DNA from: a virus
Taxonomy: Duplodnaviria > Heunggongvirae > Uroviricota > Caudoviricetes
IMG/VR virus record: IMGVR_UViG_3300012573_000004
Direction: 5' to 3' (one strand)
Length of the DNA: 64,000 nt
The notes under the pieces were generated by a model. The model made no database searches. It was not told where the DNA came from and worked only from the letters and a program-made list of their open reading frames with translations. Positions 1,494 through 63,813 of this stretch are shown here, one piece after another. Each line of letters opens with the position of its first letter. Within the stretch, counting starts at the first letter, position 1. A program made the position numbers and the translations under genes.

Positions 1494-1523
1494 ATAGATT
1501 CTTGTCCCTTTTTTCACACAAGA

Positions 1524-1564
1524 AAACTCCTCTTGATGACTTTTAAAAAGTCCAGGAGGAGTTT
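1524..1564 (+). terminator. Intrinsic terminator hairpin
   Basis: AAACTCCT...AGGAGTTT inverted repeat after the mscS operon. Confidence 0.6.
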
Positions 1565-1654
1565 GTTGCTTTTGGGGCGAAAACACCACTTTGCTATGAT
1601 TTTTATCAACAACAAGAAAAACTTTTTCAAACCACATACAAGGAAATATCTACC

Positions 1655-2578
1655 ATGACAGAAAACAAAGAAGTGATCTCGTCTCCTGATAACACAAACT
1701 GTCCTGATATCTATCTAGCTAGCTCTAATGAGGTCATCAGCAATCTCATTATGAATAATGATAATCAAGAAATATCCTTCTTTCCCACTACCTTTCAAGG
1801 TCTTTCCTATATTGATGATCTGGTAAGAGAGTATAAAAGAAATGGCATTTCTTTTAAAAACAAAACATCAAGAACAATGTCTATTGCTGCTTTCAAGGTT
1901 GCACGTGTTGTAGTTAGTGTGGTAGCTCTTATTCTCTTTGTAGCTGCAGTTGTGTGTGTAGAACTATTATTTTTCCATCACTTCTCCTACAGTCCTACTA
2001 GATTGGGTGAGTTTGTTATAGGTCTTAGCATTGGTTCTTTGATGATTTATCTTGCCATGAAATCAATGGGAAGTATCAATGATATAGAGATGAAAATAGA
2101 AGACAGTATCACTGGAAAGAAAAAGCTCTTTTCTACAGAAGAGAAAAAGACATTAGATTCTATTGAGGTTATTGATCTTGGTGCAACCATCAATGGTGAT
2201 GTAGGAAAGATTCACTATTCTTTTCTCAACTCTGTGAAAGATATTTTTGTCTTAGATAAAGATACTTTGCAATATATTGATCTTTTTCCTGTAGAACAAC
2301 AGTATGATAAATACATGTCCCTTTATAGTTTCCTGATTGCTAATCAACATTCCATCTCACAAGATTTGTTGGAAAAATACATAAATCAGCTAGAAGATAC
2401 AGCAGAAAAGTTTAATCTAGAAGTACAAGATGTCTTAGATTTAGCAGAAAAGTATGAAAAAGACATTGAGAAAGCACAACTAGAGAAAAAGCAGCTGAAA
2501 CAGAAGATGATTGATGAAGATGCTCAAAGAACTGTGCCTGTAGAAGAAGATGGTCTTTTTGGATTGAAAGAAAGATGA
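1655..2578 (+). CDS. Hypothetical two-TM membrane protein, family A
   Basis: Two TM helices, YDKYMSLYSFLIAN motif, C-terminal coiled coil ending DEDAQRTVPVEED; close paralog of 41114-42007. Confidence 0.8.
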   Translation: MTENKEVISSPDNTNCPDIYLASSNEVISNLIMNNDNQEISFFPTTFQGLSYIDDLVREYKRNGISFKNKTSRTMSIAAFKVARVVVSVVALILFVAAVVCVELLFFHHFSYSPTRLGEFVIGLSIGSLMIYLAMKSMGSINDIEMKIEDSITGKKKLFSTEEKKTLDSIEVIDLGATINGDVGKIHYSFLNSVKDIFVLDKDTLQYIDLFPVEQQYDKYMSLYSFLIANQHSISQDLLEKYINQLEDTAEKFNLEVQDVLDLAEKYEKDIEKAQLEKKQLKQKMIDEDAQRTVPVEEDGLFGLKER

Positions 2579-2595
2579 AATGTTAGGAGAAAAAG

Positions 2596-3498
2596 ATGAC
2601 ACTAGAAACAACACGAATTAACAACTCTCCCAGCATAGAAAACTGTGATTCTTTGATAGATTACTCTGATGATAGATTTATCTTCCAGTGGTTTTTTAAT
2701 AAGGAAAAAGAAAACCCTACTATATATCCCCGAGAGCTGAAAGATGTCATCTTCATCAATAATATATCTCGCAGGAGGGAAAAAATAGAGAAGCAGTATG
2801 GATTGTTCTCTGAGATTGAAGAAATAGAAAAATCTTTCCTATTGTGCAAAACAGTTTTATCAATAGCACTTACCCTAACAATGTTTTTGTTACTTGTTAT
2901 TGTATCTCATACTTTTATTCCAGAAGACTTTTCTCCATGGCACTGGTTAGTAGAGCACAACCTTTCTGTTAGCTTACCTTTTCTTATCTCCTTGTCTACT
3001 ACTATTTTTCTTCTTCCTATTGAACAGTGGTCTAAACACATTGATAAAAGCATTTTAATGCAATCTGGTGGGAAGGAAATGAGAAGGATAAAAAATATCA
3101 CCTTGGTGGATTTTTCTTTCACTATAAATCAAGAAGTAGATAGTATCAATCAACAGTTCTCTAGAACAATGGGAGAACTGTTGTCTTTGAAAGACAATGC
3201 ACTATCTCACTCAGGATGGGAATGTCTTTTCCCTTATTATGATAGATATATGTCCCTTTATATTTTCTTATCAGCAAACAGGAGTTCTATATCCTCTTCC
3301 CTCATGGATGAATATAGCAAGAAGTTAAATGGCAGGTACAAAGAGTTTTATCAGGCTGCACAAGATGTCATTGCTAATGGAAGAAAATATCAAAAAGACA
3401 TTGATGTAGAAAGAGACAATGCAAGACAGCTTGAGCAAAAGATGCTAGATGATGATGCATTGAGATCTATCCCATTGGAAGAAGATGGTCTTTTCTAG
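2596..3498 (+). CDS. Hypothetical two-TM membrane protein, family A
   Basis: YDRYMSLYIFLSAN and DDDALRSIPLEED shared with 1655-2578; AGGAG RBS. Confidence 0.8.
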   Translation: MTLETTRINNSPSIENCDSLIDYSDDRFIFQWFFNKEKENPTIYPRELKDVIFINNISRRREKIEKQYGLFSEIEEIEKSFLLCKTVLSIALTLTMFLLLVIVSHTFIPEDFSPWHWLVEHNLSVSLPFLISLSTTIFLLPIEQWSKHIDKSILMQSGGKEMRRIKNITLVDFSFTINQEVDSINQQFSRTMGELLSLKDNALSHSGWECLFPYYDRYMSLYIFLSANRSSISSSLMDEYSKKLNGRYKEFYQAAQDVIANGRKYQKDIDVERDNARQLEQKMLDDDALRSIPLEEDGLF

Positions 3499-3599
3499 AA
3501 GATGTCTTTTTCTTCTTGTTGTTTTATGTCCCTTTTTTTGGGATTAAAAAGAATATCCTTTCTTCCCTTGAAGCACTTAAAGGAAGAAAGGATATTTTC

Positions 3600-3920
3600 T
3601 TATGCTATTGATTCTGGGGTGCCATCCTCATTCAAGGTGATAACCAAACGCTTCTTATTAAGCATCTTGTACTGGAATTTTACCCTGTAGCTACTTAGTG
3701 GCATTTTCATAATGTTATAGTTGCCAGCAAGATCCTGAGGTGGGGTGTTGTTGCCATCCTTCTTCTTGATGCAGTACCAACGGATTCCCTGGTTATCTAC
3801 TGCATAGATATGGCCACGTCTATGGGGTGCATTGTCATTGATGCTTTGGAAGATGTTGAGGTACTTCTTTCCACTCTTGCTTAGCTGAACGGTTCCCAGT
3901 TGAATGTCCTTGTTGTTCAT
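3600..3920 (-). CDS. Hypothetical basic protein
   Basis: Start reassigned to MNNKDIQ, downstream of the AAGGA RBS and conserved promoter module. Confidence 0.7.
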   Translation of the reverse strand: MNNKDIQLGTVQLSKSGKKYLNIFQSINDNAPHRRGHIYAVDNQGIRWYCIKKKDGNNTPPQDLAGNYNIMKMPLSSYRVKFQYKMLNKKRLVITLNEDGTPESIA

Positions 3921-3925
3921 GATTT

Positions 3926-4027
3926 TTTCCTTTGATGGTGTGGTGTTTTCCTCTTGAACACCTATTACTTTAGTAGGTGTCTGGATAATGGTCAAGTTGT
4001 CTGAGGGTGAATCACCCCTATATGGGT
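3926..4027 (-). promoter_or_regulatory. Conserved promoter module
   Basis: ACCCATATAGGGGT box, TTGACC-17bp-TAAAGT, GTTCAAGAGGAAAACACCAC leader. Confidence 0.8.
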
Positions 4028-4086
4028 GTATGGAGACAAAAGGGTAGAATATTGCAGTCTTTCAACTTGTGTCCCTTTTACCCCAT

Positions 4087-4200
4087 CCCCCATTCAGGGG
4101 TACTCCTACCCCCTTCCACTTGACCTCCTACCAACAACCCTATAAAGTAATAAGTGTTCAAAGGAAAACAACAAATACATCTTTTTAGAAAGGAAAAAAC
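4087..4200 (+). promoter_or_regulatory. Conserved promoter module, divergent partner of 3926-4027
   Basis: CCCCATTCAGGGGT box, TTGACC (4120-4125)-17bp-TAAAGT (4143-4148), GTTCAAAGGAAAACA leader. Confidence 0.8.
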
Positions 4201-4201
4201 A

Positions 4202-6906: not shown

Positions 6907-7002
6907 GGAAGATAGGAAAAAGTGCAGTTTTTAAGGTAAGATTCCTTTTCAACTGCACTTTTTGCGTGGGGTGTGATTTTGTGTCCCCTTTTTTATACTC
7001 TT

Positions 7003-8187
7003 CTACTTATTTCCTTTAACTCTATTGTGTCTCCTGCACAACATAGTACAGTTGTCTTCAGTAGAAGATCCACCTTTACTCCATGCTGTTACATGATCTG
7101 CTTCCATAGATTTAAAACTGTGGATTTTTGTCTTTTCTGATTCTTTAGAACTTAAAGCACAATCAGGACAGTTGGATACACCTTTCTCCTGTGCGGCATC
7201 AGTTTGCTCTTTGTACACCTTCCTTTTTGTAGGCTCATCAAAAAGTCTTACATCAAGAAGCTGAGTATTTGATTTACCACTTAAAATGTATTCATAGATG
7301 TTCTTTTTAGCTCTAACAGCTGGATCAGCAAAAAGTTCATCTACCTCTTCTTGTGATTTCTCACCATCATAAGGATCTTTACCCCATTGCTCATAAAATC
7401 CTCCCCAGTCAAGACCTTTCATTTGTGGTTGTGGCACTCCAGGAAAACGAGAAGACACCCAATCAATAACGGTAGAAAAATAACTCTTTAGATCATCAAT
7501 ATCATCATCTTGACGGTGAGATGACATATACCCTTCAATAGATACATCTTTGCTTTCAGCAATCCATTTCAACGCAGTTTTCAACACCTCTTGACGTGCA
7601 GGATCACCTTTAACATAACAACCCCATTTATTTTGCCTAGGATCAGAAGACTTAGAAAACTCTTCTTTTGCTTTGGTGACAAAAGAACCAGAATAAATAG
7701 CATTCCTTAACTCTTGATCATTGAGTGGAATATTAGAAATATTGATAGTTTTAAACCACTCTTTAATCTCTTTTTCCGAACCTGTACACACATACACCAA
7801 CAACTTGGTATCTAAAATAAGCTCTTGTTGATCTTGTGGAAGAGAAGAAAATGTTTGCTCTCCATAATCAGTGTGAATAGCAAAACGTCCAGTGACAAAC
7901 CTTCCAATGGAGGTAATCCTTTGTTGTCCATCTAGCACTTCAAGACGATCATCACCATTGTCATCTTGTCCTACAGAAAAATAAATAAGACCTAGAGGAT
8001 ACTGTTTAAGAATAGAATGAATAACAGCTTCATCTTTTCCACCTGAGTTATAGATATAGTTGCGTTGATATTCTGGTTGGATAACAAGCTTTCCAGAAAG
8101 ACCATAAAGACCTTTTCCTTCATACTCATTATAAGTGAAATCTTTAGTTATCTCTTTAATGGAATAGGTTTTCAACTCTGTTTTCAT
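7003..8187 (-). CDS. DUF262 (GmrSD/ParB-like) domain plus C-terminal HNH endonuclease
   Basis: [14 protein letters not shown] and F..IN motifs of DUF262; C-terminal CPDC...[12 protein letters not shown]...[13 protein letters not shown] motif. Confidence 0.88.
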
Positions 8188-8189
8188 AG

Positions 8190-9332
8190 TTATTTCTCCT
8201 TTGGGTTAGGTAGTTTGTGTTGGATGAGGATGCGAGGGTAGGTGTTGCGCGGGGTGCCATCTTTGATAATCACTGGTCCGGCGTTTAAGTCTGAATAGTT
8301 TGCATATTCTTCCTTTCTATAAACCTTGGTCTTAAGGGCTGGGTCACCTGCTCCACGTTTAGCTATCCCCACAATCTCAAACTGTTCTGGGCTGTATTTG
8401 TCCAAAAAGCTGATGGGAACTCCCATGATCCCTTCATAATCACTTGGTATCCCTGCTGTTACAGGAACTTCAATAGCATCATAGTTATCATACTTTTTAT
8501 AAGCATTAGGATTTTTCATAATCCTCTTGTTGAATCTTAGATTATCTTCCATAGACATCAAAGGAATAGGTTGATGTCTTTTACCATGTTGAATATTGGA
8601 AAACCAGCAGGTATTACCCATATTCTGATAACGCTTTCCATTTTCTTCATATTGTGATTTTAGGATTTCACCTATAAGTGGAACTTCATATTTCATTGAT
8701 TTAATACCACCAGATCCAACCCACATTTTATTATCCTTAATCAAAGGAAATATCTCTTTGTAAGTAATAGCATTCATGCTACCAATGATGGAATACTCCA
8801 CCTCACCTTCTTCCAGCCAAGCTACAAACTCTCTAAACAAAGAAAATGGTGGATTGGTAATGACCATATCAGCTTCATCTCTTAAAGCTGTGATTTCTTC
8901 ACTTCTGAAATCACCATCACCTTCTAGATACTCCCAGGTGAAATCTTCAATATTTACTCTTCCATCTTGATTGACATCTTGGCCATCAAGAACAAAGATC
9001 TTCCCCCTCTCAAAGTCTTTGTCCTTGTCAAACTTATCTTCAAAGAACAAAGACTCACGAGGAATATAAAATGCACCATTCATATTAGACTTAGGCGCAT
9101 AAGAAGTGCTGATAAGTTTCTTTATCCCGTAGTCCTGAAAACGCAATGCAAAGTATTTGGTGAAGTTACTCCATTCAGGATCATCACAGGGAAGCAAAAT
9201 AGTTTTATCCCTAAACACATCAGGGTTATAGTCAAGATAAGCATTCATCTCTTTTTCAATATCAACCCATTGGGTATAAAACTCATCTTGTTTAGCTCTT
9301 TTAGCGTTATGTAGATTGCTATTTTTTGACAT
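8190..9332 (-). CDS. Adenine-specific DNA methyltransferase, EcoRI family
   Basis: [36 protein letters not shown] and [13 protein letters not shown] motifs. Confidence 0.88.
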
Positions 9333-9546
9333 TTAAACATCTTTCCTTTTTAAGCATATAGAAACTACTCTAGTTGATTCAACTATACAGTATTTGCACA
9401 GAAATATAACAAAGTGCCTTTGCTCACTTTCATGTCCCTTTCCCACATAACACAACCTTACTTGATTCCTTTGTTATCTTCTTCTATAATGAGAACTATA
9501 AAAGAAAAACAAGTACATCACTTAAACAAAGAAAGTTATCTTACAC

Positions 9547-10452
9547 ATGTCTCATATGATTATCACTCGTGGTCTTCCAGCTTCTGGAAAAAGTACCTTT
9601 GCTGCACAATGGGTTGAACAGTCTCCTGATAACAGGGTAGAAATCAACAGGGATACAATGCGTGCTGCATGTGGATTTCCTCCCTTGGGAAGCAAAGAAC
9701 AAGAAAAGGCTATCACTGCATGCTGTGATGCTTTGATGGAAGAAGCAGCATCTCGTGGTGTTGATATCATTGTTTCTAATACTAATCTTCGCCTGCGTTA
9801 TGTAAAACAGCTCTACCGTTGGGCTTATAACCATAACTACACTGTAGAGGTGAAAGATTTTGTTGTTGATCTAGATGAACTTTTAAGGCGCAACAACAAC
9901 CGTGGAAATCCTGTTTCCAATGAGGTTGTAAAAGATCTCTACCATAGGTTCCCTTATAAGAACTGGGGTAGTATGGAAGATATTGAGCGATCTCTACGGG
10001 AAGATAAGACTTATCTACCTTATAACAATGATCCTTCCAACCCTACAGCTATCATTGTAGATATTGATGGTACTCTAGCTCACCATGATAAGGTAAGAAC
10101 TCCTTTTGAGTTTGACAAGGTAGCTTTTGATGAGGTGGATAATCCAGTAAAAGATGCTGTGTTGTCAGCTTACCAGTATGGCCATACCATTCTCGTGGTA
10201 TCAGGGCGATCTGATTCTTGCTATGAGGATACTGCACAGTGGCTAGACAAGCATGATATCCCTTATCATGATTTGTTTATGCGTTCTCGTGATGATAAGC
10301 GCAAAGACTGGATTGTCAAAGATGAGATCATTAGAACCCATATTCAAGATAACTACCATGTTGTCTATTGTCTTGATGATCGCAATCAGGTGGTAAATCA
10401 CAACCGTGCTATGGGGTATAAGGTATTTCAAGTACAACCTGGTGATTTTTAG
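9547..10452 (+). CDS. pseT: Polynucleotide 5'-kinase / 3'-phosphatase (T4 PseT-like)
   Basis: Walker A GLPASGKST kinase domain fused to a HAD phosphatase domain (DIDGTL, SGR, DDR..VV..R..G..VFQV..GDF). Confidence 0.92.
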   Translation: MSHMIITRGLPASGKSTFAAQWVEQSPDNRVEINRDTMRAACGFPPLGSKEQEKAITACCDALMEEAASRGVDIIVSNTNLRLRYVKQLYRWAYNHNYTVEVKDFVVDLDELLRRNNNRGNPVSNEVVKDLYHRFPYKNWGSMEDIERSLREDKTYLPYNNDPSNPTAIIVDIDGTLAHHDKVRTPFEFDKVAFDEVDNPVKDAVLSAYQYGHTILVVSGRSDSCYEDTAQWLDKHDIPYHDLFMRSRDDKRKDWIVKDEIIRTHIQDNYHVVYCLDDRNQVVNHNRAMGYKVFQVQPGDF

Positions 10453-10461
10453 ATCACCAAA

Positions 10462-10499
10462 GCAGCCTAAGGTTCTAGATACCCTAGGCTGCATTTTTT
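10462..10499 (+). terminator. Intrinsic terminator
   Basis: GCAGCCTAAGGT...ACCCTAGGCTGC followed by a T run. Confidence 0.7.
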
Positions 10500-10581
10500 C
10501 ATATGGGTGTTTTGTGTCCCTTTTTCTGGAAATCAAAAAAATGCATATCAACTTAAAAAGGTTAATATGCATTCTACTTTG

Positions 10582-14524: not shown

Positions 14525-14529
14525 GATGT

Positions 14530-14637
14530 GTTCTCCTTGTATGTGGTGTGGTGTTTTCCTTGTGAACAACTTCTACTGTAGTGGGTGATTAGTGGGTGGT
14601 CAAGCAGAAGGGGTATGTGATACCCCATATAAGGGGT
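14530..14637 (-). promoter_or_regulatory. Conserved promoter module
   Basis: ACCCCTTATATGGGGT box, TTGACC-17-TACAGT, leader, AAGGAG. Confidence 0.8.
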
Positions 14638-14741
14638 AATCTTACCTGTGTCCCTTCCTCCACATCCTACCTTTTAATATAAAACAACCTTCCTGCATGC
14701 AACTTCATGCACACAGAAAGGTTGCTCTCCTTTGTCAATCC

Positions 14742-15203
14742 TTAGCTTTCAAGGATATTTTGCGTAATCTCCACATAATCAACAGCTTCTAGAACATCCA
14801 CAACCTCTACATCATCTTCACCATGAACCTCATAATCATAAGATCCAGTATCTTTCTCAGTGCGGAATACAACACCATGAAAATCAGTAATGCTTGCTCC
14901 ATTAAAAAGAATGTTGTCAATCATTTCAGTAGAAGTGATAATGTCATCACTGTCATTCATCTTCTCCATCATTTTCTTCCACTGGGAAACAACTTCTTCC
15001 ACACCATCTTGATCAAACTGAGCATTAACATCAAAATCAAGATAAATGTAGTTGTCATCAGAAAACTTACCACCAGTTGCTTCAATATCTTCTACAATCT
15101 GATCTTCCCAAATATCACTCATCAAGAAGATCTCTTGTGCAGCATAGAGATAAGCAATCTCATTGTGGCTAAGCTTATTGGCAATCTCTTGTGCAGTAGT
15201 CAT
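14742..15203 (-). CDS. Hypothetical acidic protein, family C
   Basis: Start reassigned to MTTAQEI after AAGGAG; tandem paralog of 14057. Confidence 0.8.
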   Translation of the reverse strand: MTTAQEIANKLSHNEIAYLYAAQEIFLMSDIWEDQIVEDIEATGGKFSDDNYIYLDFDVNAQFDQDGVEEVVSQWKKMMEKMNDSDDIITSTEMIDNILFNGASITDFHGVVFRTEKDTGSYDYEVHGEDDVEVVDVLEAVDYVEITQNILES

Positions 15204-15207
15204 GGTA

Positions 15208-15316
15208 TTTTCTCCTTGTGATGTGGTGTTTTCCTCTTGAATAACTTCTATATTAGTGGGTGGCTGAGAAGTGAGCAAGTTGTGTGGGTGTGAAAACACC
15301 CCTGAAATGGGGGGGT
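15208..15316 (-). promoter_or_regulatory. Conserved promoter module
   Basis: CCCCATTTCAGGGGT box, TTGCTC-17-TAATAT, ATTCAAGAGGAAAACACCAC leader. Confidence 0.75.
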
Positions 15317-15557
15317 GTTCAAATTGGCATAGTTTTAAAATCACTGGTAATATTAGCAGAACATAGCACTTCCATAAATACCATGTACCTTGTTTGGATA
15401 CAAATGTAGCCCCAGTCACATCACAACTGTGAGAGGTGCAGTCACATACACTATGGCAGAGGTGTACTGAAGGTTGAATACCTAAATCTAGGGCGTACAA
15501 AAATCATTATACACAGCACATGTGCTTAATGCAAGACCTCTTAATGAGGGTATAGTT

Positions 15558-16397
15558 TTAAAATCCTAAAACTACAAAAGAAGCAAACAAAACAGAAGAA
15601 GAAATAACAGCTTTCTTTACCAGCTTTTCATTGTGATACCACTTGTCTTTTCCTGTACTAGAAGACTGTGAGCTGATAGTAAAGCTTCTTAGATTATTGG
15701 AAACAATATTTTTTACTATGCTATCTTCTTCTTTATTTTCCTCAAAAGAGGTGGAAAATCCATAAAACCTCCCACCCAAAGAAGCAGTATAGACTCCTAT
15801 GAAACCCTTTCCAGGAATCCACACAGGTCCTCCAGAATCACCTTTTTCACCTTGCACATGAGAATCTCCCACAATAAGATTTCCTATAGTTGCACTTACA
15901 TGACCACAGTTGATTTTTCCTTGTCTTCTGCTGTACATGCACATTTCATCACCTTCTTCAACATCAGAAATGCTCACCCTACGATCACCAGAATACTTAT
16001 TATCACCTAGAAAAACATGCTTAGTATCAACCTTTATAACATTGAAATCTTCGCTCATTTTTTGTGGGTGAAGTGCTCCAAAAGAGTTAGGCTTGTCATA
16101 GCGTGATGTAATAGTACCAATGAAATACCCTTCACCATCATGCACTTGTGAAGTCTCCCCGGAAACAGCACAGTGCTCTGCTAGATAAGCTAGACCTTGT
16201 TCTTTGTCAATATATCCCACAGTGCAAGTTTTTCTTTTATCAATGAAAACTTTATCCCCTTGAGACAAAACAGGAATATCCTGAAATACTCCCCTGCCAT
16301 AGTTTCTTGCAGGTGTATCTTCTGCTATAGCATGAGGAGAGGTTAAAAGAGAAGCTATGGTGATAAAAGCTAAAAAGAACTTCTGCTTGATATTCAT
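15558..16397 (-). CDS. Secreted trypsin-like serine protease (S1 family)
   Basis: Signal peptide ending AIA-ED, CTVGYID, AEHC (catalytic His), GDSGGP (catalytic Ser), C-terminal hydrophobic anchor. Confidence 0.82.
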   Translation of the reverse strand: MNIKQKFFLAFITIASLLTSPHAIAEDTPARNYGRGVFQDIPVLSQGDKVFIDKRKTCTVGYIDKEQGLAYLAEHCAVSGETSQVHDGEGYFIGTITSRYDKPNSFGALHPQKMSEDFNVIKVDTKHVFLGDNKYSGDRRVSISDVEEGDEMCMYSRRQGKINCGHVSATIGNLIVGDSHVQGEKGDSGGPVWIPGKGFIGVYTASLGGRFYGFSTSFEENKEEDSIVKNIVSNNLRSFTISSQSSSTGKDKWYHNEKLVKKAVISSSVLFASFVVLGF

Positions 16398-16613
16398 GGT
16401 GATATGATTAGTTTCCTTGATTGTTTTTCTTTGAAGATGGCTGTTTTTCATCACAACACTACCACAAGGGAATATAAGAAAACAATCTTATCTGCAGGAA
16501 TCATACAGTGTGGTTATTTGTGTCCCTTTTTGAAAACCACCATCCACACAAGAAACCCCCCTTGAACTTTGCACAAAACAAAGACAAGGGGAAGTCTCAG
16601 AGCAGCAAAGATA

Positions 16614-30710: not shown

Positions 30711-30919
30711 TTTTTCTTTTCCTTTCAAGTAAGAGCAAACTGCATATTCACATCAAAGCAGTTTAAAAACATTGGTTTCATATTGATTATACACCTTGCA
30801 TTAATATTTGGATTAATGTCAGCACACATATTTGTGTCCCTTTTTGATTCTCTTTCCTAGCTATAACAAAAAACACCACTAGTTATAAAAACCAGTGGTG
30901 TTTTACTCCCTGTTAGGTG

Positions 30920-31654: not shown

Positions 31655-31661
31655 TTTCTAC

Positions 31662-31768: not shown

Positions 31769-31893
31769 AGAGTATATATTTGTGTCCCTTTTTATTTTAA
31801 GGTGTGCTCTTCCCAGCAAAAAACACACCTCTTTCAATGTTGCATTGCTTATACAGCATTAAAAGAGATGTGTTTTTCTGCTTTTCACACGCT

Positions 31894-33064: not shown

Positions 33065-34640
33065 CAATGAGTTATTCAGATCTATTATCACCTCACCCTT
33101 TGCTGCTTCTGATAAAAATGGACAGGTTGTTGATACAGGAGAAGTATTAAGTGATCTCAAAAGTGAAATAATACTTATTACAGATGTAGCAGAAATGAAC
33201 ATCACAATAGAAAATAAAAACTTAGTAGATAATTTCATAGAATATAGAAAGAAAAGCAAGCTACCCAATCTCAACAATGCAGAAATAGCTAGAAGGTTAG
33301 AAATAGCATACCCTAAGGATTTTTATTATCCTGGGAAATCTGGACGATCTAGGGTAAATAAGCTTTTTGGAGCTAGAGTTGTATCAGAATGCAAATCATG
33401 GATTGAAAGATGTAAAGCAGTAGAAGGGACATCAAATAAATATATCTCTCAAGGTTGGTCAAGAACTGCACAATCTTGCAAACCACGCAATCTATCACCA
33501 AAGATAAACCTAGGAGATGTAGATAAAGCATACTGCACAATGGACATAGTTGATGACACCATTGTCTTAGATTTGGTTGTGCAAGGAAAATGGTACAAGT
33601 TCTACTTTGATTATGATAAAAGATTTCATAATGCTGATGACATAGCAAAACCATCTATCTATGTAGATAATAATGGTAAAGTGAGGTTTTCCTTTCCTGT
33701 TGTGTATAAGTACAACTTCTCTCATTTTAGCAGTAGGTATGTGGTAGGAGTAGATGTAGGAATAACCAACTATGCAACTGTTGTTGTCTATGACACAAAA
33801 GAGAAAAGAATAGCTCACTCTACTACACTTTCACAAAGAGTTCATGGCTTAGCCAATAAAGTCAAAAAGTCTAATGTTCAAGTATCTTCTCTACAGAATA
33901 AGGGAAGAAAAGATGAAGCTATGCTACATAGATCTTCAAATTCCAAAAGGAAAAGAGAACTGGCAATCTTAGCTGCTCAAGAGATTGCTAAGATTTCTTA
34001 TGTTTGGGATAATGCTATTGTAGTTTTTGAAGATCTATCCTGGATTAAAAACACCATGGAAAATGGTAGGTGGAATAGAGGAGAACTGGTTAAAAGGACC
34101 ACTGAACAAGTAGAACTTAATGGTGGAAGAGTTATTAAAACTAGTTGTTATAACACTTCCCAAGTGTGTTGTAGCTGTGGAAGAAAGATAACTTTCAAAG
34201 GATATCATGTTGTAATATGCAACTTTTGTAATACCACATTAGATAGAGACATCAATGCAACTGCTAACGTTGCTAAAAGGATTACTATTTCTAGAAATGA
34301 AAATCCTTTTAGCACTTTTTCTAAGATGATAAAAACTAGAAATACTAAGAAAAATTCTAAAAATGCACACAAGAAAAGGTCTAAAAATGGTTCAGGGAAA
34401 ACATTAAAATTCCCAGGAAGAGATAGGACAAAAAATAAACCAACACCAAAAAGAAAGAAGAGAAAAGAGGTGAAACCATTAACACAATGCTCTGCGCAGA
34501 ACAACAATGATTCTAGGGTAGCGTTAGATGCATTTTGCAGCAGCGACTGTAAATGTATGACCATAAAAGGCAGCATGAAAGTAATCTATGATACAAATGA
34601 CACTTCCAAAATGGATGTTAAATGTATCATAGTGCAATAA
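33054..34640 (+). CDS. tnpB: IS607-associated TnpB
   Basis: GVDVG, VFEDL, TSQVCCSCG...CNFC and DRDINA RuvC/zinc-finger motifs; lysine-rich C-terminal extension. Confidence 0.88.
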   Translation: MRNSNELFRSIITSPFAASDKNGQVVDTGEVLSDLKSEIILITDVAEMNITIENKNLVDNFIEYRKKSKLPNLNNAEIARRLEIAYPKDFYYPGKSGRSRVNKLFGARVVSECKSWIERCKAVEGTSNKYISQGWSRTAQSCKPRNLSPKINLGDVDKAYCTMDIVDDTIVLDLVVQGKWYKFYFDYDKRFHNADDIAKPSIYVDNNGKVRFSFPVVYKYNFSHFSSRYVVGVDVGITNYATVVVYDTKEKRIAHSTTLSQRVHGLANKVKKSNVQVSSLQNKGRKDEAMLHRSSNSKRKRELAILAAQEIAKISYVWDNAIVVFEDLSWIKNTMENGRWNRGELVKRTTEQVELNGGRVIKTSCYNTSQVCCSCGRKITFKGYHVVICNFCNTTLDRDINATANVAKRITISRNENPFSTFSKMIKTRNTKKNSKNAHKKRSKNGSGKTLKFPGRDRTKNKPTPKRKKRKEVKPLTQCSAQNNNDSRVALDAFCSSDCKCMTIKGSMKVIYDTNDTSKMDVKCIIVQ

Positions 34641-36212: not shown

Positions 36213-36611
36213 TCACTTTTCTGATTCCCCATTTTGTGACTTTACATATTCTAAGATTTTATCTTGTGATACCTTTCCTACTGTATTACAGTCATATCCC
36301 CCATTCCAGAGTTTTTTCTTCTCACCCCGGTAAAAAGAAGATAAGTGTTCAGAGGAATTGTTCCAAAGATGGTATAAACTCCATCCCTTCAACCTGTTGA
36401 CAATCCCTGAAACAGAATATTGTGGTGATGATTTAATAACTAGATGAATATGATTACCATCTTCTATTCCCATGTCTAGAATCTTAAAACAAGAATGATC
36501 TTCTATCTCTCTAAAGGCTCTATAGGTTTCCTGTTCAATACCTAGTAATGCTTTTCTACGATATTTTGTGGTTAAAACCACATGATAAATCAGAGTAGTT
36601 CTTGCTCCCAT
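36213..36611 (-). CDS. tnpA: IS200-type Y1 (HUH) transposase
   Basis: YHVV.TTKYRR, HUH motif NHIHL, LKG, W..GY...TVG, catalytic Y..SQ. Confidence 0.92.
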   Translation of the reverse strand: MGARTTLIYHVVLTTKYRRKALLGIEQETYRAFREIEDHSCFKILDMGIEDGNHIHLVIKSSPQYSVSGIVNRLKGWSLYHLWNNSSEHLSSFYRGEKKKLWNGGYDCNTVGKVSQDKILEYVKSQNGESEK

Positions 36612-36689
36612 TTTTACAACTTTCTAAAATCTATGTTATCCTTATAACTACTATACCAGATAAGACAGAGAAGGTGGTGAAAAGCAAGA

Positions 36690-49430: not shown

Positions 49431-49550
49431 CTTATGTCTTTTTCTCCCTCACATTTGTGTCCCTTTCAAGGGTTTTCCTTAATAGAAAAATCCTCCCACA
49501 CCAGGTAATACCCACCTAGTGCAGGAGGATTATTTCCCCCTATATCTTCC

Positions 49551-50174
49551 TTATGCTGCTACACGAACTGTCTTAGTAGTAACATATCCATTGATATTCC
49601 ATGCTGGATACTCTCCAGTATAAGGAGAGTTATCAGGATACATTGCTGGAACACCTTCACCCTCTTCAGGGTTTCCTAGGGAAACAACGGTATGCTCTTT
49701 CCATCCATCAATACCACGCTTAAAGACAGTCATTCCTACTTCAACCTCTTCAACTGGAATAACCTTGCTTTCTAGAAACTTCTTTCCTAGTTGAGTATTT
49801 TCTGGCTGAGCGTTATCAATAGCTTCTAGCATCTCATTGAAATCATGGCCATCTTGCTCTACTGCAGGTGCATCAATGCGCTGGGTGATATCCCAGTTCT
49901 CATCTACAACATAGATACCATTGTCTCCAGGGGAGTGTGCTTCCAAGTTGCGTGGATCCAGGGAAGTGATATACACAGAACCTAGCTTAAAGAAGTTGTT
50001 AGCAATGGTGATAAGAGTAGCCAAACCTCCATCATGTGCCTTTTCACCTAGTCCTTGTGGGGTGTGGAAGGAAGCATACTTCAAAAATGGTGCTACAGAA
50101 TCCATTCCTCCATTCCAGTGAAGCTCAACTCCTACAGTGGAGTTCTTACCAGTAATCAGTGCTCGGTTTCCCAT
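49551..50174 (-). CDS. Hypothetical phage protein
   Basis: Start reassigned to MGNRALI; LHWNGG and GDNGIY motifs; canonical promoter module upstream. Confidence 0.78.
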   Translation of the reverse strand: MGNRALITGKNSTVGVELHWNGGMDSVAPFLKYASFHTPQGLGEKAHDGGLATLITIANNFFKLGSVYITSLDPRNLEAHSPGDNGIYVVDENWDITQRIDAPAVEQDGHDFNEMLEAIDNAQPENTQLGKKFLESKVIPVEEVEVGMTVFKRGIDGWKEHTVVSLGNPEEGEGVPAMYPDNSPYTGEYPAWNINGYVTTKTVRVAA

Positions 50175-50178
50175 TGTT

Positions 50179-50281
50179 TTCTCCTTAAGTGGTGTGGTGT
50201 TTTCCTCTTGAACAACTTCTATATTAGTGGGTGTGTGGTAAGTGGTCAAGTGGAGGGGGTGCAAAATACCCCTATATGGGT
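50179..50281 (-). promoter_or_regulatory. Conserved promoter module (type example)
   Basis: ACCCATATAGGGGT...TTGACC-17-TAATAT-AGAAGTTGTTCAAGAGGAAAACACCACACCAC-TTAAGGAG-ATG. Confidence 0.85.
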
Positions 50282-50409
50282 GTAGGTGGTTATGATAAGG
50301 TGATCACAGGGACTGCACCACTTGTGTCCCCTTTTTAAAGACGCTAGAAAAAATCCCCTCCTATCATCTTCTCTCAAAGACAATAAGAGGGGAAAGGGTT
50401 ATTTTCTTG

Positions 50410-50685
50410 CTACATCTTTTCTACCACAGTCTTATCCTCGTTGGCAAATTTGAAGCCATGGAATGCAAGGGCATCTTCTACATCAATGCTACCTCCTACC
50501 TTGAGAACAAGGTTGTAAAATCCCTCCTGTGGATCAACAGTGATGGTGTATCCGTTCTTTCCCCAGGAGCCAATCTCCAGGTTGTCAGCTTCCTGTTGAG
50601 TGCAAGCATTCTCAATAACTAGAGCCTTGTGGTCAAGGTCATCAATGATGTGGATGGTCTTGGTGTTGAAGGTTTGAGCTGCCAT
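50410..50685 (-). CDS. Hypothetical protein, family M
   Basis: AAGGAG RBS; similar to 4683-4982. Confidence 0.75.
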   Translation of the reverse strand: MAAQTFNTKTIHIIDDLDHKALVIENACTQQEADNLEIGSWGKNGYTITVDPQEGFYNLVLKVGGSIDVEDALAFHGFKFANEDKTVVEKM

Positions 50686-50689
50686 GATG

Positions 50690-50793
50690 TTCTCCTTGTG
50701 ATGTGGTGTGTTTTCCTCTTGAACACTTATTACTTTATAGGATGGTTTCTAGGTGGTCAAGTTGTATGAGGGTGGAATACCCCTATATGGGGT
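50690..50793 (-). promoter_or_regulatory. Conserved promoter module
   Basis: ACCCCATATAGGGGT, TTGACC-17-TAAAGT, leader. Confidence 0.82.
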
Positions 50794-50972
50794 TATTTTT
50801 GCCATCAAGTATAAACACACATAATCAAAAATAAACAAAAAAGACAATCAGACATAAAACAACATTCCTTGCTTCTATACAATCTGTGTCCCTTTTTGTG
50901 TGTTTTTATTCCTCATAAGAACAACACCCCTGTAGAATACTATGCATCCTACAGGGGTGTTGTTTTAAACTA

Positions 50973-51356: not shown

Positions 51357-51361
51357 GGTGT

Positions 51362-51467
51362 TTCTCCTTAGAAACAAGTCAGTGTGTTTTCCTTTGAACA
51401 CTTATTACTTTAGTGGGAATACAGGAGATGTTCAAGTCATATGGGTGTAAAACACCCCTATATGGGT
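51362..51467 (-). promoter_or_regulatory. Conserved promoter module
   Basis: ACCCATATAGGGGT, TTGAAC-17-TAAAGT, GTTCAAAGGAAAACAC leader. Confidence 0.8.
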
Positions 51468-51582
51468 GTAGATGATACAGAAATCATGTCATATACTTGT
51501 GTCCCTTTGCAGGGATAAAAGAATAACCTTTCTAGGAATCTTTTATTAAAATCCCCAGAAAGGTTAATCCAATATGAAGCTA

Positions 51583-51960
51583 TTAAATCTGCTCAGTGAG
51601 AACCTTAGCAAAAAGACGCTTGGCATTAGCTGCAGCTTGCAAAACTACAGACAACTCTTCTAGTTCTTCAGCAGTATCAGCCAGGTTGGAGGGAATAGAA
51701 ACCTCTACACCAGAGTAATCACTTTCCCCATCCAGGTTATCTACTGGGTAGAGATCAACACCAAACGTGCTGTCATTCTGGATGCCTACAAACTTATTAT
51801 CCTTAGTGAAGTTATCCTTATCCTGAGAGAAGTAGCGAACTACCAGCTGGTATGGCTCAACATCCCAGGTAAGCTCCTTGATGTACTTTTCAACTTCACC
51901 GTTGTCATTGTACTTAGCAAAAACTCGCTCTTCTGGTTGAATGATGTTCTGAGAAGTCAT
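51583..51960 (-). CDS. Hypothetical protein, family L (weak)
   Basis: AAGGAG RBS, promoter module upstream, terminator downstream. Confidence 0.75.
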   Translation of the reverse strand: MTSQNIIQPEERVFAKYNDNGEVEKYIKELTWDVEPYQLVVRYFSQDKDNFTKDNKFVGIQNDSTFGVDLYPVDNLDGESDYSGVEVSIPSNLADTAEELEELSVVLQAAANAKRLFAKVLTEQI

Positions 51961-51968
51961 GATATGTG

Positions 51969-52069
51969 GTCTCCTTGTGATGTGGTGTTTTCCTCTTGAA
52001 CAACTTCTACTTTAGGTAATGGTTGCTAGGTGGTCAAGTTGTCTGAAGGTGAAACACCCCTGAATGGGT
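51969..52069 (-). promoter_or_regulatory. Conserved promoter module
   Basis: ACCCATTCAGGGGT, TTGACC-17-TAAAGT, GTTCAAGAGGAAAACACCAC. Confidence 0.82.
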
Positions 52070-52228
52070 GTAAATGAGAAAAACACACATAAACACATAT
52101 GATCACAATATATCCCACAGAAAAAACCACACAATCCCACAATAAGAGATTATGTGTGTCCCTTTTTTAAAACAAACAATGAGAAAGCCACGGGGATAAT
52201 CCCCGTGATAGTTAACTATTTTCCTAAG

Positions 52229-54508: not shown

Positions 54509-54516
54509 TGTATTTT

Positions 54517-54617
54517 TCTCCTTATATGTGGTGTGTTTTCCTCTTGAACAACTTCTATATTAGGGGATGGTTGAGAAGTGGTCAAGTTGTACAAGGGTGA
54601 AACACCCCTGAATGGGT
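54517..54617 (-). promoter_or_regulatory. Conserved promoter module
   Basis: ACCCATTCAGGGGT, TTGACC-17-TAATAT, leader. Confidence 0.82.
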
Positions 54618-54781
54618 GTAGTTGAAGATCTTTGTTTGTATCATCCAGAGTGATACAAGTGAAGTTATCAGCTAATGATTTCCCCGTCATATTCATGTCC
54701 CTTTTTGATAAAAATAAATCAACAATCCCTGCACAAGATGTGTGAGGGGTTACACAAGTTGAGGTGTGTACTACGAGGAAA

Positions 54782-56280: not shown

Positions 56281-57684
56281 AAACCTCACCTCAAGACCTC
56301 CCCACCTCTTAGCGAACGAAAGTGAGCGTAGGTGGTGGGAGTAATGGGTTTCTTCAATCTACATATATTCACTAAAGTATGATACACTATATATCAGTGA
56401 ATAGAAGTATAGAATTGAGGTGACAATGAACACGATCACAATCACAACAAAAGTCAGGATATATCCAACTCCAGAACAAGAAGAGTCTTTAAAAAAGACA
56501 CAGAAAGGGTATGTGGATGGATGTAATCTTGTGTCACAATGGGTAAAAGACAATCAAGAGTTATCTCAGAAAAAGATCAACTCAGCATTGTATTCAACTA
56601 TTCGTGAAAACACTGGGTTGGGTGCTCAAATGAGCCAATCTGTGATCAAAACTGTCATTTCAACTTACAAAACTATTCACTCTGACAATAAGAAGTGGAG
56701 TATTTGTCCTAGATATAAAAAGCACAGAGTAGAACTTGTCAGGGGAAGAGACTATTCCCTTATCAAGGATGGAAGACTGTCTATTGGGACTATTGATGGA
56801 AGAATCAAGATTCCTTACACTGAAAACCCATCACTTCCATTGCATGATTACACTCTAGGAACAGCAACTCTTGTTTTCAAGCATGGAAAGTGGATCATGC
56901 ATATTCCTATCACTATTAATGTTGCTGAAGTATCTGACAGTGATATTGAAAACATCATGGGAATTGATGTAGGTCTTAGGTTTCTTGCCACTTCTTATGA
57001 CTCTTCTGGGAAGACAAAGTTCTACTCAGGAAAAGAAGTAAAAAGAAAAAGAGCACACTATAGTCAGCTTAGATCTCAATTGCAGAAGAAGAACACCAGA
57101 TCTTCTAGGAGACGGCTGAAATCTATTGGCAATAGAGAGAACCGCTGGATGACTGATGTAAATCATCAGGTATCTAAGGCACTCGTAGAGTCAGTAGATT
57201 CGCCAACGTTATTTGTTCTGGAAGATTTAACAGGAATTCGTTCTGCAACAGAGATTGTGTGCAAAAAGAACCGCTATTACCAGGTTTCTTGGGCTTTCTA
57301 CCAGCTAAGATCAATGGTTGAGTATAAGGCTCAAAAGAATGGTCACAAGTTCATTGCTGTTGATCCTAGGAATACCTCAAGAGCATGTCCTAAGTGTGGT
57401 TTTACTTCAAAGAAGAATAGAAACAATAAGAATCACTTATTTACTTGCCAATCTTGCAACTATTCAAGCAATGATGACAGAGTAGGTGCTATGAATATCC
57501 ATAGCAAGGGAATCAAGTACCGTATGGATACAACTGCTGAGCATGCTCAGCAGTTACAGGGTGCTAGTCAACCACCCTTAGATGTTCCGCCATTTCAAGG
57601 TGGGAGGGGTAAGCATACTTACCCCGTGAATACCACTGGGCAGGGACAAACCCCTACCTCAACCGTGAGGTAGGGGTAGTTGAT
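56281..57684 (+). mobile_element. IS200/IS605-family tnpB-only (IS1341-like) element
   Basis: Left-end hairpin CCCACCT...AGGTGGTGGG; right end ACCCCTACCTCA-ACCG-TGAGGTAGGGGT then AGTTGAT; left boundary approximate. Confidence 0.82.
56420..57673 (+). CDS. tnpB: TnpB RNA-guided nuclease family protein
   Basis: RIYPT.EQ HTH, GIDVG, VLEDL, TSRACPKCG...CQSC, NDDRVGAMNI. Confidence 0.92.
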   Translation: MTMNTITITTKVRIYPTPEQEESLKKTQKGYVDGCNLVSQWVKDNQELSQKKINSALYSTIRENTGLGAQMSQSVIKTVISTYKTIHSDNKKWSICPRYKKHRVELVRGRDYSLIKDGRLSIGTIDGRIKIPYTENPSLPLHDYTLGTATLVFKHGKWIMHIPITINVAEVSDSDIENIMGIDVGLRFLATSYDSSGKTKFYSGKEVKRKRAHYSQLRSQLQKKNTRSSRRRLKSIGNRENRWMTDVNHQVSKALVESVDSPTLFVLEDLTGIRSATEIVCKKNRYYQVSWAFYQLRSMVEYKAQKNGHKFIAVDPRNTSRACPKCGFTSKKNRNNKNHLFTCQSCNYSSNDDRVGAMNIHSKGIKYRMDTTAEHAQQLQGASQPPLDVPPFQGGRGKHTYPVNTTGQGQTPTSTVR

Positions 57685-58382: not shown

Positions 58383-58390
58383 GATTATTA

Positions 58391-58495
58391 TCTCCTTGTT
58401 GTATGTTGTGGTGTTTTCCTCTTGAACACTTATGACTTTACAGGGTGATTGGTGGGTGGTCAAGTGGAGGGGGTGGGAAACACCCCTATATGGGT
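58391..58495 (-). promoter_or_regulatory. Conserved promoter module
   Basis: ACCCATATAGGGGT, TTGACC-17-TAAAGT, GTTCAAGAGGAAAACACCAC. Confidence 0.82.
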
Positions 58496-58570
58496 GTAGG
58501 TGAAAACTGTTTATGCATTAAGAAAGGTATTTCTTCATTCTCCCCTTTGTTGATTGAAGCCATTATAAGA

Positions 58571-58645: not shown

Positions 58646-58791
58646 GCAGTGTATTCTACAGCATTATAGACAGCCTTGTCTGTCTATTTTCTCAAACTGT
58701 ATATTTGTGTCCCCTTTTCACACTTCATTATCCATACATACAAAAAACACCCTAGCCTATTTTGAAGGTAGGGTGTTATTTCTTTGGTGTT

Positions 58792-59070: not shown

Positions 59071-59076
59071 AATATG

Positions 59077-59180
59077 TTCTCCTTAGATGATGTGGTGTTT
59101 TCCTCTTGAACACTTATTACTTTATAGGGTTGTTAATAGGTAGTCAAGTGGAAGGGGTAGCAATACCCCTATATAGGGGT
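59077..59180 (-). promoter_or_regulatory. Conserved promoter module with perfect palindromic box
   Basis: ACCCCTATATAGGGGT (59165-59180), TTGACT-17-TAAAGT, leader. Confidence 0.82.
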
Positions 59181-59663
59181 AAGTCAAGTATGCAGGCTTG
59201 AATATCTATGGTTTCAAGCAGGATCTTAGTAGCGTGAGGAGATGGGTATGGAGCTGTAGAGAAGTTTTGTTTTTTTATTACTGCAGGGAATATTTTTGCT
59301 CTATATTCCTTTTTAAGGCGTTGAAATCTTTTTAGGGTGCAACTTATCCAGAATCTATTTCTAAGCACCCTATGCCTTACACAGGGCATGAAATAGATGA
59401 GTTATGAACATAGTGATAAGAGTTTGTATTCTTATTATTATATTCCTGGTTTTTGCAGAACAAAACTGTGTCCCTACTTATATATCCTTTATACCAATAC
59501 AAAAATCTTCTGTGAACTTCTACAGAGGATTATGAGGTTTTATGCTAGGTTTCTACACATTTGATTTTTTCCTTTTTTGTTTTTTTAGCTTGACATCCCT
59601 TTTGATCTTCCCTATTGTAGAGTTGCACAACAAAAAGCACACACCTTCAAAGGAGATTAAAAA

Positions 59664-60071: not shown

Positions 60072-60180
60072 CCCCCCACATAGGGGTAAAAATACCCTTC
60101 CGCTTGCCTTCCTCATGACAAGCCACTAATATAGTAAGTGTTGAAAAGGAAAACAGCACACCACCTACAAGGAGAAAACA
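60072..60180 (+). promoter_or_regulatory. Conserved promoter module (+ strand)
   Basis: CCCCCACATAGGGGT, TTGCCT-17-TAATAT, GTTGAAAAGGAAAACAGCACACCAC, AAGGAG. Confidence 0.78.
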
Positions 60181-60182
60181 TC

Positions 60183-60503
60183 ATGACCGCTAACAATATG
60201 GATGCCATCATTTCCCGCTACGTAAAGAGTCTCAATGAGATGTCTGCACAGGGAAAGATGTATGATAAGGTATTTTCTGTTTCCAATGGCCGCAAGTACG
60301 CCAAGATCATCTCTTCTTCTGGTGACATCAGCAATCAGAACTTTGCATTCTGCTTCATTGATCGCAAAACTGGTGAAGTATACAAGCCTGCATCTTGGAA
60401 GTCACCAGCAACCAAGCATGTACGCTACACCATCACCAACGAAGAGGAAGCAAAGAATCTTGCTGAGCGCTCTGACTCATGTGGTTCTTTCCTCTACCTT
60501 TAA
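60183..60503 (+). CDS. Conserved hypothetical phage protein
   Basis: GRKY.KI....AFCFID..TG.VYKPASWK.P..HVRY motif, which I recall from large-phage early proteins. Confidence 0.78.
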   Translation: MTANNMDAIISRYVKSLNEMSAQGKMYDKVFSVSNGRKYAKIISSSGDISNQNFAFCFIDRKTGEVYKPASWKSPATKHVRYTITNEEEAKNLAERSDSCGSFLYL

Positions 60504-62540: not shown

Positions 62541-62544
62541 GGGT

Positions 62545-62648
62545 TTCTCCTTATATGTGGTGTGTTTTTTCTTGAGATATAACTTCTATGCTAGTAAATG
62601 GTTGATAGATATTCAAGCTATTTTAAAAAACACACCCTGTTCAGGGGA
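62545..62648 (-). promoter_or_regulatory. Degenerate promoter module
   Basis: CCCCTGAACAGGG box, TTGAAT...TAGCAT, AAGAAAAAACACACCAC leader. Confidence 0.6.
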
Positions 62649-62730
62649 TAAACACATGTGTCCCTCTTCTTGGAAAGATAAGAAAAACTACCTAGGAAAA
62701 ACAACCTAGGTAGTTATCTTGTTTTAACTC

Positions 62731-63198
62731 CTATTCCCAGGAAATATTGGGAAAGAAGGTTTTCATCTTTCCATTTTCAAAAATATTCTTCCATGTACAG
62801 AGATCTTCCCCAAGCCATATGATATAAGATCCATCATATTCAATGAAAGGTGCTAGGTATCCAAGGAAGATATCTTCATCGCCCATCTCACCTTTAAATC
62901 CTACAATCTCTAGATCACCAGATTGAAGGATTTCAGTCTCAAATCCCAAAGCATGCAAGATTTCTTCTGTGCTCTTATAGATTTCATCATAATTCCAATC
63001 TAGACCATTAAACCACTTATTAGGATTGGTAGCTACAGAATTGGACTCTTGTGGCTTTTCATAGAGTTTTCCTGAATGAACCCCACCCCTTTTAAGCTCA
63101 TCCTTGGTGTTGAGTTCGCATAGTGTCTTATAAGCATGATCAAGATAATCATAAGGAATAGCAAAGTTGGAATCAATAATGCGAATTTTATAACCCAC
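62731..63198 (-). CDS. Hypothetical acidic protein, family B
   Basis: GTG start after AAGGAG; near-identical segments to 38039 (LGFETEILQSGDLEIVGFKGEMGDED). Confidence 0.82.
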   Translation of the reverse strand: MGYKIRIIDSNFAIPYDYLDHAYKTLCELNTKDELKRGGVHSGKLYEKPQESNSVATNPNKWFNGLDWNYDEIYKSTEEILHALGFETEILQSGDLEIVGFKGEMGDEDIFLGYLAPFIEYDGSYIIWLGEDLCTWKNIFENGKMKTFFPNISWE

Positions 63199-63203
63199 GT
63201 GTT

Positions 63204-63280
63204 TCTCCTTGTGATGTGGTGTGTTTTCCTCTTAGATACAACTTCTATTATAGGATCTTTATTGATAAAGATCAAGTGGA
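63204..63280 (-). promoter_or_regulatory. Promoter module without clear upstream box
   Basis: TTGATC-17-TAATAG/TATAAT region, AAGAGGAAAACACACCAC leader. Confidence 0.65.
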
Positions 63281-63532
63281 ATGATGTGATCTACTCTTGT
63301 TCTGTGTTGAAGTTGTACAAAGGGGTAACTTTATGACTGTAATTTATCATGATAGTTAAAAATGTTTTTATTAACAGTTGGGTTGTTTTCTCTTGCTCTT
63401 CCAATATAGAGGTAAGGGGTATAAAAATAAAGAATGATATTTTCTTGTGTGTTTAATTTGATTTGTATTAGTGGGGTTGTTATAGTGGGAAAAGAAGACA
63501 GCACACCACAGAATGTTTTTGCTGCCTTTTTA

Positions 63533-63607
63533 GCTCCTATAGTTCAGTTTGGTTAGAGCAGCACCCTTATAAGGTGAAAGTCACTGGTTCAAGTCCAGTT
63601 GGGAGCA
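63533..63607 (+). tRNA. tRNA-Ile(TAT)
   Basis: GCTCCTA/TGGGAGC acceptor stem, CACC-CTTATAA-GGTG anticodon arm (TAT at 63568-63570), GGTTCAAGTCC T-arm, discriminator A. Confidence 0.88.
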
Positions 63608-63813
63608 CAGAATATATTTTGCAAAAATCACAACAGGAAGAAGAACATAGGATGTGGATGATCCTTTCTTGTGTTTACTCATGTCCCTTTCCCCTTATTG
63701 CAACAGAAGAGACTTGTATAGTTTTGGGTTCTTAACCATGGTATTGGTAGTATTTTTCATAACACAACAACCACACAACATAATATCTACACTCAAGGAG
63801 AGAACAACACGTC

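Follow-up and report, generated by a model that had tools for sequence, protein, structure and literature searches.

Does a short word that recurs between the genes of a phage-like replicon follow the direction of transcription or the polarity of the genome? The question is raised by a 64,000-nt stretch of DNA assigned to the Caudoviricetes (IMG/VR virus record IMGVR_UViG_3300012573_000004; hereafter the window), for which an earlier note had described about 40 intergenic copies of a strand-polar motif, roughly one per 1.6 kb and all on the + strand. The motif belongs to a conserved, non-palindromic word of 12–15 letters with the consensus ATTYRTGTCCCYTTT (hereafter the polar word), as derived from a profile of 57 non-redundant sites that were selected by the core TGTCCC and the next two bases. 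Information in this profile is confined to positions -5 to +9, i.e. from five bases 5' of the core to four after it, and forms one degenerate block without a second box. The density of about one copy per 1.6 kb was confirmed; the count was corrected to about 37 intergenic copies.

Restriction of the word to the + strand holds throughout the window: TGTGTCCCT occurs 24 times on the + strand and never on the - strand (shuffle mean 0.54), TGTCCCT 39 times versus twice (shuffle mean 7.7), TGTCCC 43 times versus three times, and YRTGTCCCYY 39 times versus none. The word family tops the 8-mer and 10-mer over-representation in the window, and it is far more frequent than chance would give, 82 TGTCCC having been found in 113 kb of non-redundant DNA against a Markov expectation of 13–20. 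Both reverse TGTCCCT matches lie within TnpB open reading frames of insertion sequence (IS) elements (33054–34640 and 56420–57673), and the third reverse TGTCCC (29747) is situated in the gene of a SpaA-domain protein and lacks the 3' T run. An active depletion of the reverse word is not claimed, because the three occurrences compare with 11 expected from a Markov model of order 2 but with 5.3 from order 3, GGAC/GTCC being broadly avoided.

Placement relative to genes was assessed with a hand-made gene list, according to which 26 % of the window is non-coding. Intergenic enrichment is pronounced (38 of 43 + strand cores, p=1e-17), the 38 cores being distributed over tandem-minus (19), convergent (8), divergent (6) and tandem-plus gaps (4) and the window edge (1); one of them, at 45378, belongs to an IS605-type hairpin. 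A strict copy is present in 35 of the 66 gaps of at least 60 bp. The core is typically found 85–100 bp after a stop codon and 110–150 bp ahead of a start; in the stretch that was scanned, it separates a terminator-like hairpin from the promoter that follows. The proposed occurrence in divergent (4068), convergent (3527, 6980) and tandem gaps is correct, the copy at 6980 representing the variant TGTGTCCCCTTTT, and orientation is independent of neighbouring gene direction, as the strand is the same in all four gap types. The three pairs of oppositely oriented paralogues named in support of this proposal are likewise real (51 %, 39 % and a weak 34 % identity over 41 amino acids). In two plus-strand paralogues, the word is spelled within a conserved MSLY stretch (cores at 2316 and 3251); the minus-strand paralogue at 41114–42007 reads MRLY and hence contains no reverse copy, which is a single case.

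Genome polarity and conservation among strains

Relatives (~90 % identical) were retrieved by a metagenome scan with a repeated promoter word of the window and include pieces of a 382,215-nt contig; seven sequence sets (L124, L134, L137, L140, L141, L145, L154) were left out, since their alignments to the window are all at most 300 bp long. Polarity was read over the window and ~76 kb of the 382-kb contig, altogether about one quarter of the replicon. In the 24 relative sequence sets kept, YRTGTCCCYY occurs 166 times in forward and five times in reverse orientation, and the ratio is 69:0 when the window and its relatives are reduced to 113 kb of non-redundant, IS-free DNA (one inversion masked). 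Four of the five reverse copies, all intact, lie in one 3.2-kb inversion of the 382-kb contig (L135 about 7200–10500) with both ends located within a 21-bp inverted promoter repeat; in L129, L130, L142 and L152, parts of the same segment are present in normal orientation.

The fifth reverse copy resides ~15 kb to the left of the window, in a non-coding but conserved gap; all three strains covering this gap have the copy, with the full consensus only in L122. A forward copy is ~200 bp away and inverted DnaA boxes ~170 bp, and this gap could represent an origin or a genome end. Beyond the gap, the next two copies are on the same strand and at lower density, only 7.5 kb being seen there. The suggested check for a polarity switch therefore yielded none across the DnaA-box gap, though with just two sites in 7.5 kb and a gap that is not a proven origin. 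On the near side, the polar word is dense over at least 94 kb of an arm rich in host-type promoters. The proposal that the signal is tied to genome polarity instead of transcription is supported by the ratio of 166:5, the reverse copies being confined to one inversion or one special gap.

Other repeated elements behave differently. Promoter and ribosome-binding site (RBS) words go with the genes onto either strand: the RBS word shows a distribution of 30:10, and copies of the promoter cassette are seen in both orientations. One and the same promoter cassette can adjoin the polar word on either of its faces, with inverted homology extending to 3–5 bp from the core. Since the cassette flanks either face, and paralogues and promoters turn while the word does not, the word does not take its orientation from the genes around it; a single ancestral event, or very few, may underlie the arrangement on both faces. 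In 57 of 59 site-by-strain comparisons covering 24 sites (alignments of at least 800 bp), the core shows no change, compared to 56 % for other intergenic hexamers and 62 % for coding hexamers; these comparisons are non-independent because the strains are related, and the sites were defined in the window. Flanking words are conserved less well (-35 word, 10 of 16; RBS word, 32 of 46), and the core also exceeds the hairpin word. Some copies have decayed, e.g., to TGCCCC.

Gene-exchange junctions

Several strain differences coincide with polar-word copies (Table 1). The restriction-modification (RM) cassette is missing from all four relatives covering the site (L120, L133, L143, L146); at the empty site, the sequence to the left of copy 6982 continues within the core into that to the right of copy 9433, the core being the only sequence shared. 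Since a raw histogram of 120 alignment ends lacked a sharp peak at the word as compared to neighbouring 20-bp bins, an anchored junction test was adopted. In this test, synteny switches at 11 of 44 comparable word copies versus 2 of 46 sites for two generic A/T words serving as control (p=0.007), and 18 distinct allele-pair switches occur at the 11 loci. For the -35 word, the RBS word and terminator arms, the corresponding values are 2 of 18, 1 of 21 and 2 of 21, respectively. With switches at 7 of 18 loci, the promoter hairpin is no less frequent a switch point than the word (p=0.36); this anchor lies ~20 bp from many word sites and is not independent of them.

Of 22 non-redundant simple indels (own classification), one has both ends in the word, five have one end there, two involve a longer repeat containing the word, and 14 do not involve it; most are associated with repeats (of promoters, leaders, terminators or paralogues) or with the ends of IS elements. 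The anticipated coincidence of gain and loss breakpoints with the motif accordingly applies to the 11 loci and to the RM junction within the core, and not to most simple indels. A main between-strain exchange point is the PeSL-like (see below) promoter/leader cassette, which turns with the genes. Joints in Logan contigs from seven runs are likewise mostly in promoter repeats; these are assembled contigs and carry no molecule-end signal. One raw RNA run yielded a single placed read. Taken together, the polar word is a preferred, non-exclusive module border in a genome that, as read from strain alignments, recombines readily at short repeats.

Readings of the polar word

The word is strand-fixed, conserved copy by copy and located outside transcription units, hence a protein action that would disturb transcription is its simplest reading, and a polar DNA-level signal of one kind or another is very probable. 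Among such readings we tentatively place in front, with confidence well short of even, a site recognized by a nicking enzyme of the phage, which would generate single-strand interruptions in one packaged strand, similar to those of phages tf, T5 and phiKMV. A phage protein would read the word on the DNA itself and cut one strand. As host-promoter-driven early genes would use both strands as template, nicks would be tolerable only in the gaps that separate a terminator from the promoter after it. Free ends together with 8–12 bp of shared sequence could then form preferred, non-exclusive crossover points, yielding module borders beside the longer promoter repeats.

A number of points weigh against nicking. 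It is proposed from sequence alone and the enzyme is putative, and every sequence fact, including the directly observed polarity, intergenic place, per-copy conservation and junction enrichment between strains, equally fits a polar protein-docking site that is not cut. In Pseudomonas phage tf, 12 of 14 nicks are within annotated coding sequences and two at start codons, so that an intergenic rule is foreign to known sites, and the word is about twice as dense as the nick sites of tf. Five of the 43 + strand cores lie within genes (three in + genes, two in - genes). Moreover, the four intact reverse copies are contained in a contig of 105x coverage, so that, over short periods, polarity is no absolute requirement, and the window contains no virion gene.

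Nicking is closely rivalled by a polar docking site for replication or DNA entry. Polar docking of a phage replication protein outside transcription units (loading of a primase-helicase, re-priming, or restart of forks that have collided with strong early promoters) is possible, if somewhat unlikely. It would agree with the spacing (mean 1.6 kb), which is more even than random (coefficient of variation 0.67, P=0.007) though gene lengths may cause this evenness, with the reverse copy kept near a forward copy and the inverted DnaA boxes in three of three strains, and with the commonest form of the word containing GTGTC, like T7 primase sites. However, the two copies past the DnaA-box gap retain their strand, skew at four-fold sites tracks the coding strand and not the genome strand (GC skew p=0.35), and known primase sites are shorter than the word and are not known to be intergenic. 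Strict genome polarity as well as the high density over the host-type-promoter arm versus the short stretch past the gap could also suit a protein in DNA entry, packaging or protection from host exonuclease, following a KOPS- or Chi-like logic on the incoming or packaged linear genome. We regard this as unlikely, since 38 of 43 cores avoid genes, whereas Chi and KOPS are shorter and freely placed in genes.

The directional recombination core that the earlier note had envisaged for the shuffling of gene modules is weakly supported: junctions do fall at the word, yet most indels use other repeats. Excision, duplication and insertion of promoter-gene-terminator cassettes by a dedicated site-specific system (integron-like logic with a new chemistry) would account for the RM empty site, the tandem duplication of L156 joined within the core and the 18 allele-pair switches, and both excision and integration require uniform orientation. 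Such a system is nevertheless improbable, because promoter repeats swap at least as often, dyad arms are absent and inverted copies are tolerated (four in one contig). Only a single simple indel out of 22 is bounded by the word at both ends, and the phage recombines at the 21-bp promoter repeat too. Arm complementarity (2.8/12) equals that of mismatched pairs, an attC-like hairpin is missing and the minimum free energy is no lower than for offset controls; the 75 open reading frames of the window include no recombinase besides IS607/IS200 enzymes, and individual copies of a facultative site would not be expected to be retained almost perfectly. Still less probable, and indeed very doubtful, is a transcription insulator or repressor site whose common orientation would be a historical by-product of spread by direct-repeat recombination. 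Its position between terminator and promoter and the stoperator-like, asymmetric 13–15-mer would fit, but orientation disregards gene direction in each of the four types of gap, modules have been inverted repeatedly without leaving a reverse copy in the window, and the 57-site profile reveals no -10 element at a fixed distance. Identity with stoperators was rejected, as the orientation of the word ignores transcription direction. The PafBC-dependent RecA-NDp promoter, in which a TGTC-type box is followed by TANNNT at about 10 bp, was rejected as well (0–2 of 43 sites per spacing for spacings of 8–12).

Returning to nicking, one may further speculate, albeit as a rather unlikely extension, that one enzyme marks every transcription-unit boundary of the accessory arm on one strand, so that the genome would be pre-cut into promoter-gene-terminator modules, which would be exchanged, duplicated or lost via these marks, with the opposed pair by the DnaA boxes as genome end or origin. 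If true, a polar border system would give phage nicks an evolutionary function and constitute an integron-like cassette array without integrase. Should it serve replication or entry instead, the word would indicate that a giant phage lineage, uncultured and probably actinobacterial, possesses a protein that reads DNA in a polar manner. Dozens of candidate sites with a clear placement rule are at hand, better conserved than the adjacent promoters and situated at gene-exchange junctions, and their placement leads to sharp predictions for the positions of strand ends and module circles. Literature searches, which covered few subscription journals, returned no description of the word or the phenomenon.

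Genome setting and known systems

Homologues are found on contigs of 330–383 kb, and the replicon is likely a ~380-kb phage-like element with the window in its accessory arm, phage status being judged from gene content; the host is probably actinobacterial according to best hits. The window has 37 % GC, five tRNAs and many paralogous small genes. It encodes a polynucleotide kinase (nearest to those of large actinophages), an RM pair, a Dam-type methylase and a SpaA-domain protein, and its families include PHROG families of unknown function. A search of the window against Rfam revealed tRNAs only, and Atlas searches with two candidate proteins named no family. The SpaA-domain protein (28872–30728) is secreted and carries a GPEVNTGG tail at its end; the product of 15558–16454 has a serine-protease-like GDSGGP motif and no Pfam match. 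One IS element (at 17106) has another place and orientation in L152, and an IS607 changes loci among relatives. AATT is strongly avoided in the window and relatives (173 versus 539 expected), as are words containing GGCC, TCGA, GCCTC/GAGGC and GTGCAC, which suggests several host restriction systems.

Table 1 Positions of the polar word, exchanged modules, promoter cassettes and mobile elements (window coordinates unless a sequence set is named)
Feature	Position	Strand	Remarks
Polar-word array, whole extent	1498..63691	+	
Intergenic TGTCCC core starts, first part	1503, 3527, 4070, 6982, 9433, 10515, 13420, 14649, 16521, 18701, 19822, 21566, 22067	+	
Intergenic TGTCCC core starts, second part	25870, 30835, 31783, 35583, 38614, 43252, 44314, 47699, 49458, 50325, 50887, 51500	+	
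Intergenic TGTCCC core starts, third part	52157, 52986, 54098, 54696, 55398, 57793, 58708, 59469, 60044, 60572, 62659, 63682	+	
TGTCCC core starts within genes	2316, 3251, 29222, 42727, 46943	+	
Reverse TGTCCCT	33425..33431	-	Within IS607 TnpB gene; not a consensus copy
Reverse TGTCCCT	57642..57648	-	Within a TnpB gene; not a consensus copy
Polar-word copy between promoter cassettes	4065..4079	+	Separates two divergent, mutually inverted cassettes
Polar-word copy, left junction of RM cassette	6977..6992	+	Convergent gap
RM cassette	7003..9332	-	GmrSD-HNH nuclease and EcoRI-type methylase; flanked by two polar-word copies
Polar-word copy, right junction of RM cassette	9428..9442	+	Divergent gap
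One-gene module between copies 49458 and 50325	49453..50335	+	Tandem duplication in L156; new junction within core
Module between copies 51500 and 52157	51495..52166	+	Relocated in 382-kb contig; homology begins at core
Polar-word copy	58703..58718	+	Differing left neighbours in several strains
Sigma70-type promoter/leader cassette, reference copy	50173..50288	-	TTGACC-17-TAATAT; upstream CCCCTATATGGG hairpin; repeated, family D1, 11 copies
Promoter/leader cassette copies (~115 bp), first part	3919-4034, 14527-14642, 15202-15317, 31657-31772, 50173-50288, 50684-50799		
Promoter/leader cassette copies (~115 bp), second part	51359-51474, 51961-52076, 54509-54624, 58387-58502, 59071-59186		
Promoter/leader cassette, inverted copies	4077-4180, 60095-60194		
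Non-coding gap, highly conserved	L144 11800-13200		Inverted DnaA boxes, AT-rich palindrome, opposed pair of polar words
IS200/605/607-type elements with TnpB (four)	17106-18443, 32444-34640, 36213-38024, 56420-57673		
IS hairpin remnants	near 45370 and 52188		

Scans of IMG/VR detected nothing similar to the element among at least 119 loci with the motif, no match with the promoter word, and no relative with four proteins (the match of L172, one in a 175-kb record, is spurious); a GTDB scan gave seven chance matches only. The word is absent from four 50-kb stretches of three large actinophages in culture, Racecar, NiceHouse and Muntaha (TGTCCC 3–9 versus GGGACA 11–18). In the Arthrobacter phage Racecar (L166, L167), each 50-kb stretch has 15–16 copies of TAGTTACAAAA on one strand versus a single copy on the opposite strand, a bias that is probably transcription-linked, most genes there pointing the same way. 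A different phage-like element retrieved by the promoter scan (L145, L154) displays ~25 copies per 20 kb of the near-palindromic ACATACTATGT/ACATAGTATGT on both strands.

Among known systems, Chi, KOPS and SRS are octamers of host chromosomes that run through genes and switch polarity at ori/ter. They share genome-strand polarity and non-palindromic form with the polar word, which differs in being longer, intergenic (38 of 43 cores) and free of a switch in the part seen. Integron attC and the att sites of tyrosine and serine recombinases are same-orientation sites bounding exchangeable gene modules; the polar word has neither inverted arms nor fold-back, no integrase was seen in the window, and most exchanges proceed via other repeats.

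Stoperators of cluster A mycobacteriophages are, like the word, asymmetric ~13-mers present in more than 20 intergenic copies in an actinobacterial-type phage, but their orientation follows transcription (PMC9283540), whereas that of the word follows the genome strand. The promoter-stem-loop (PeSL) cassettes of T4-like phages are described as repeated intergenic elements of a hyperplastic region that act as exchange points for unrelated small genes (PMC2839356, PMC4122927). The promoter-plus-hairpin cassette of the window behaves in this way, and the polar word resembles PeSL in being a place where genes are gained or lost (11 of 44 loci show a synteny switch). Unlike PeSL, it is a separate element of 12–15 bp outside the cassette, has no promoter, stem-loop or extra folding, and does not turn with transcription.

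The nicking function of T5 is represented by sciA/sciB. One-strand nicks are carried by T5 and BF23 (PMC10644984), and their function is still called unclear in a 2026 preprint (bioRxiv 10.64898/2026.09.21.753257). Among documented sites, the nearest counterpart of the polar word is the nick consensus of phage tf, the degenerate 9-mer TACT/RTGMC; the 14 mapped nicks all affect the same strand, irrespective of the direction of the genes there, and cluster in one genome region, their purpose being stated as unknown (PMC3517423). In the tf record, these sites lie mostly within genes, on the non-template strand of early and middle genes. The polar word differs in sequence and number (at least 69 copies at ~1 per 1.6 kb versus 14 at 1 per 3.3 kb), is intergenic and located at module-exchange junctions, and is known here from its sequence alone. 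Both the word and the localized single-strand interruption (sci) sites of tf, phiKMV-like phages and T5 are short, degenerate and non-palindromic, occur in many copies on one genome strand whatever the gene direction, and are unevenly distributed along the genome.

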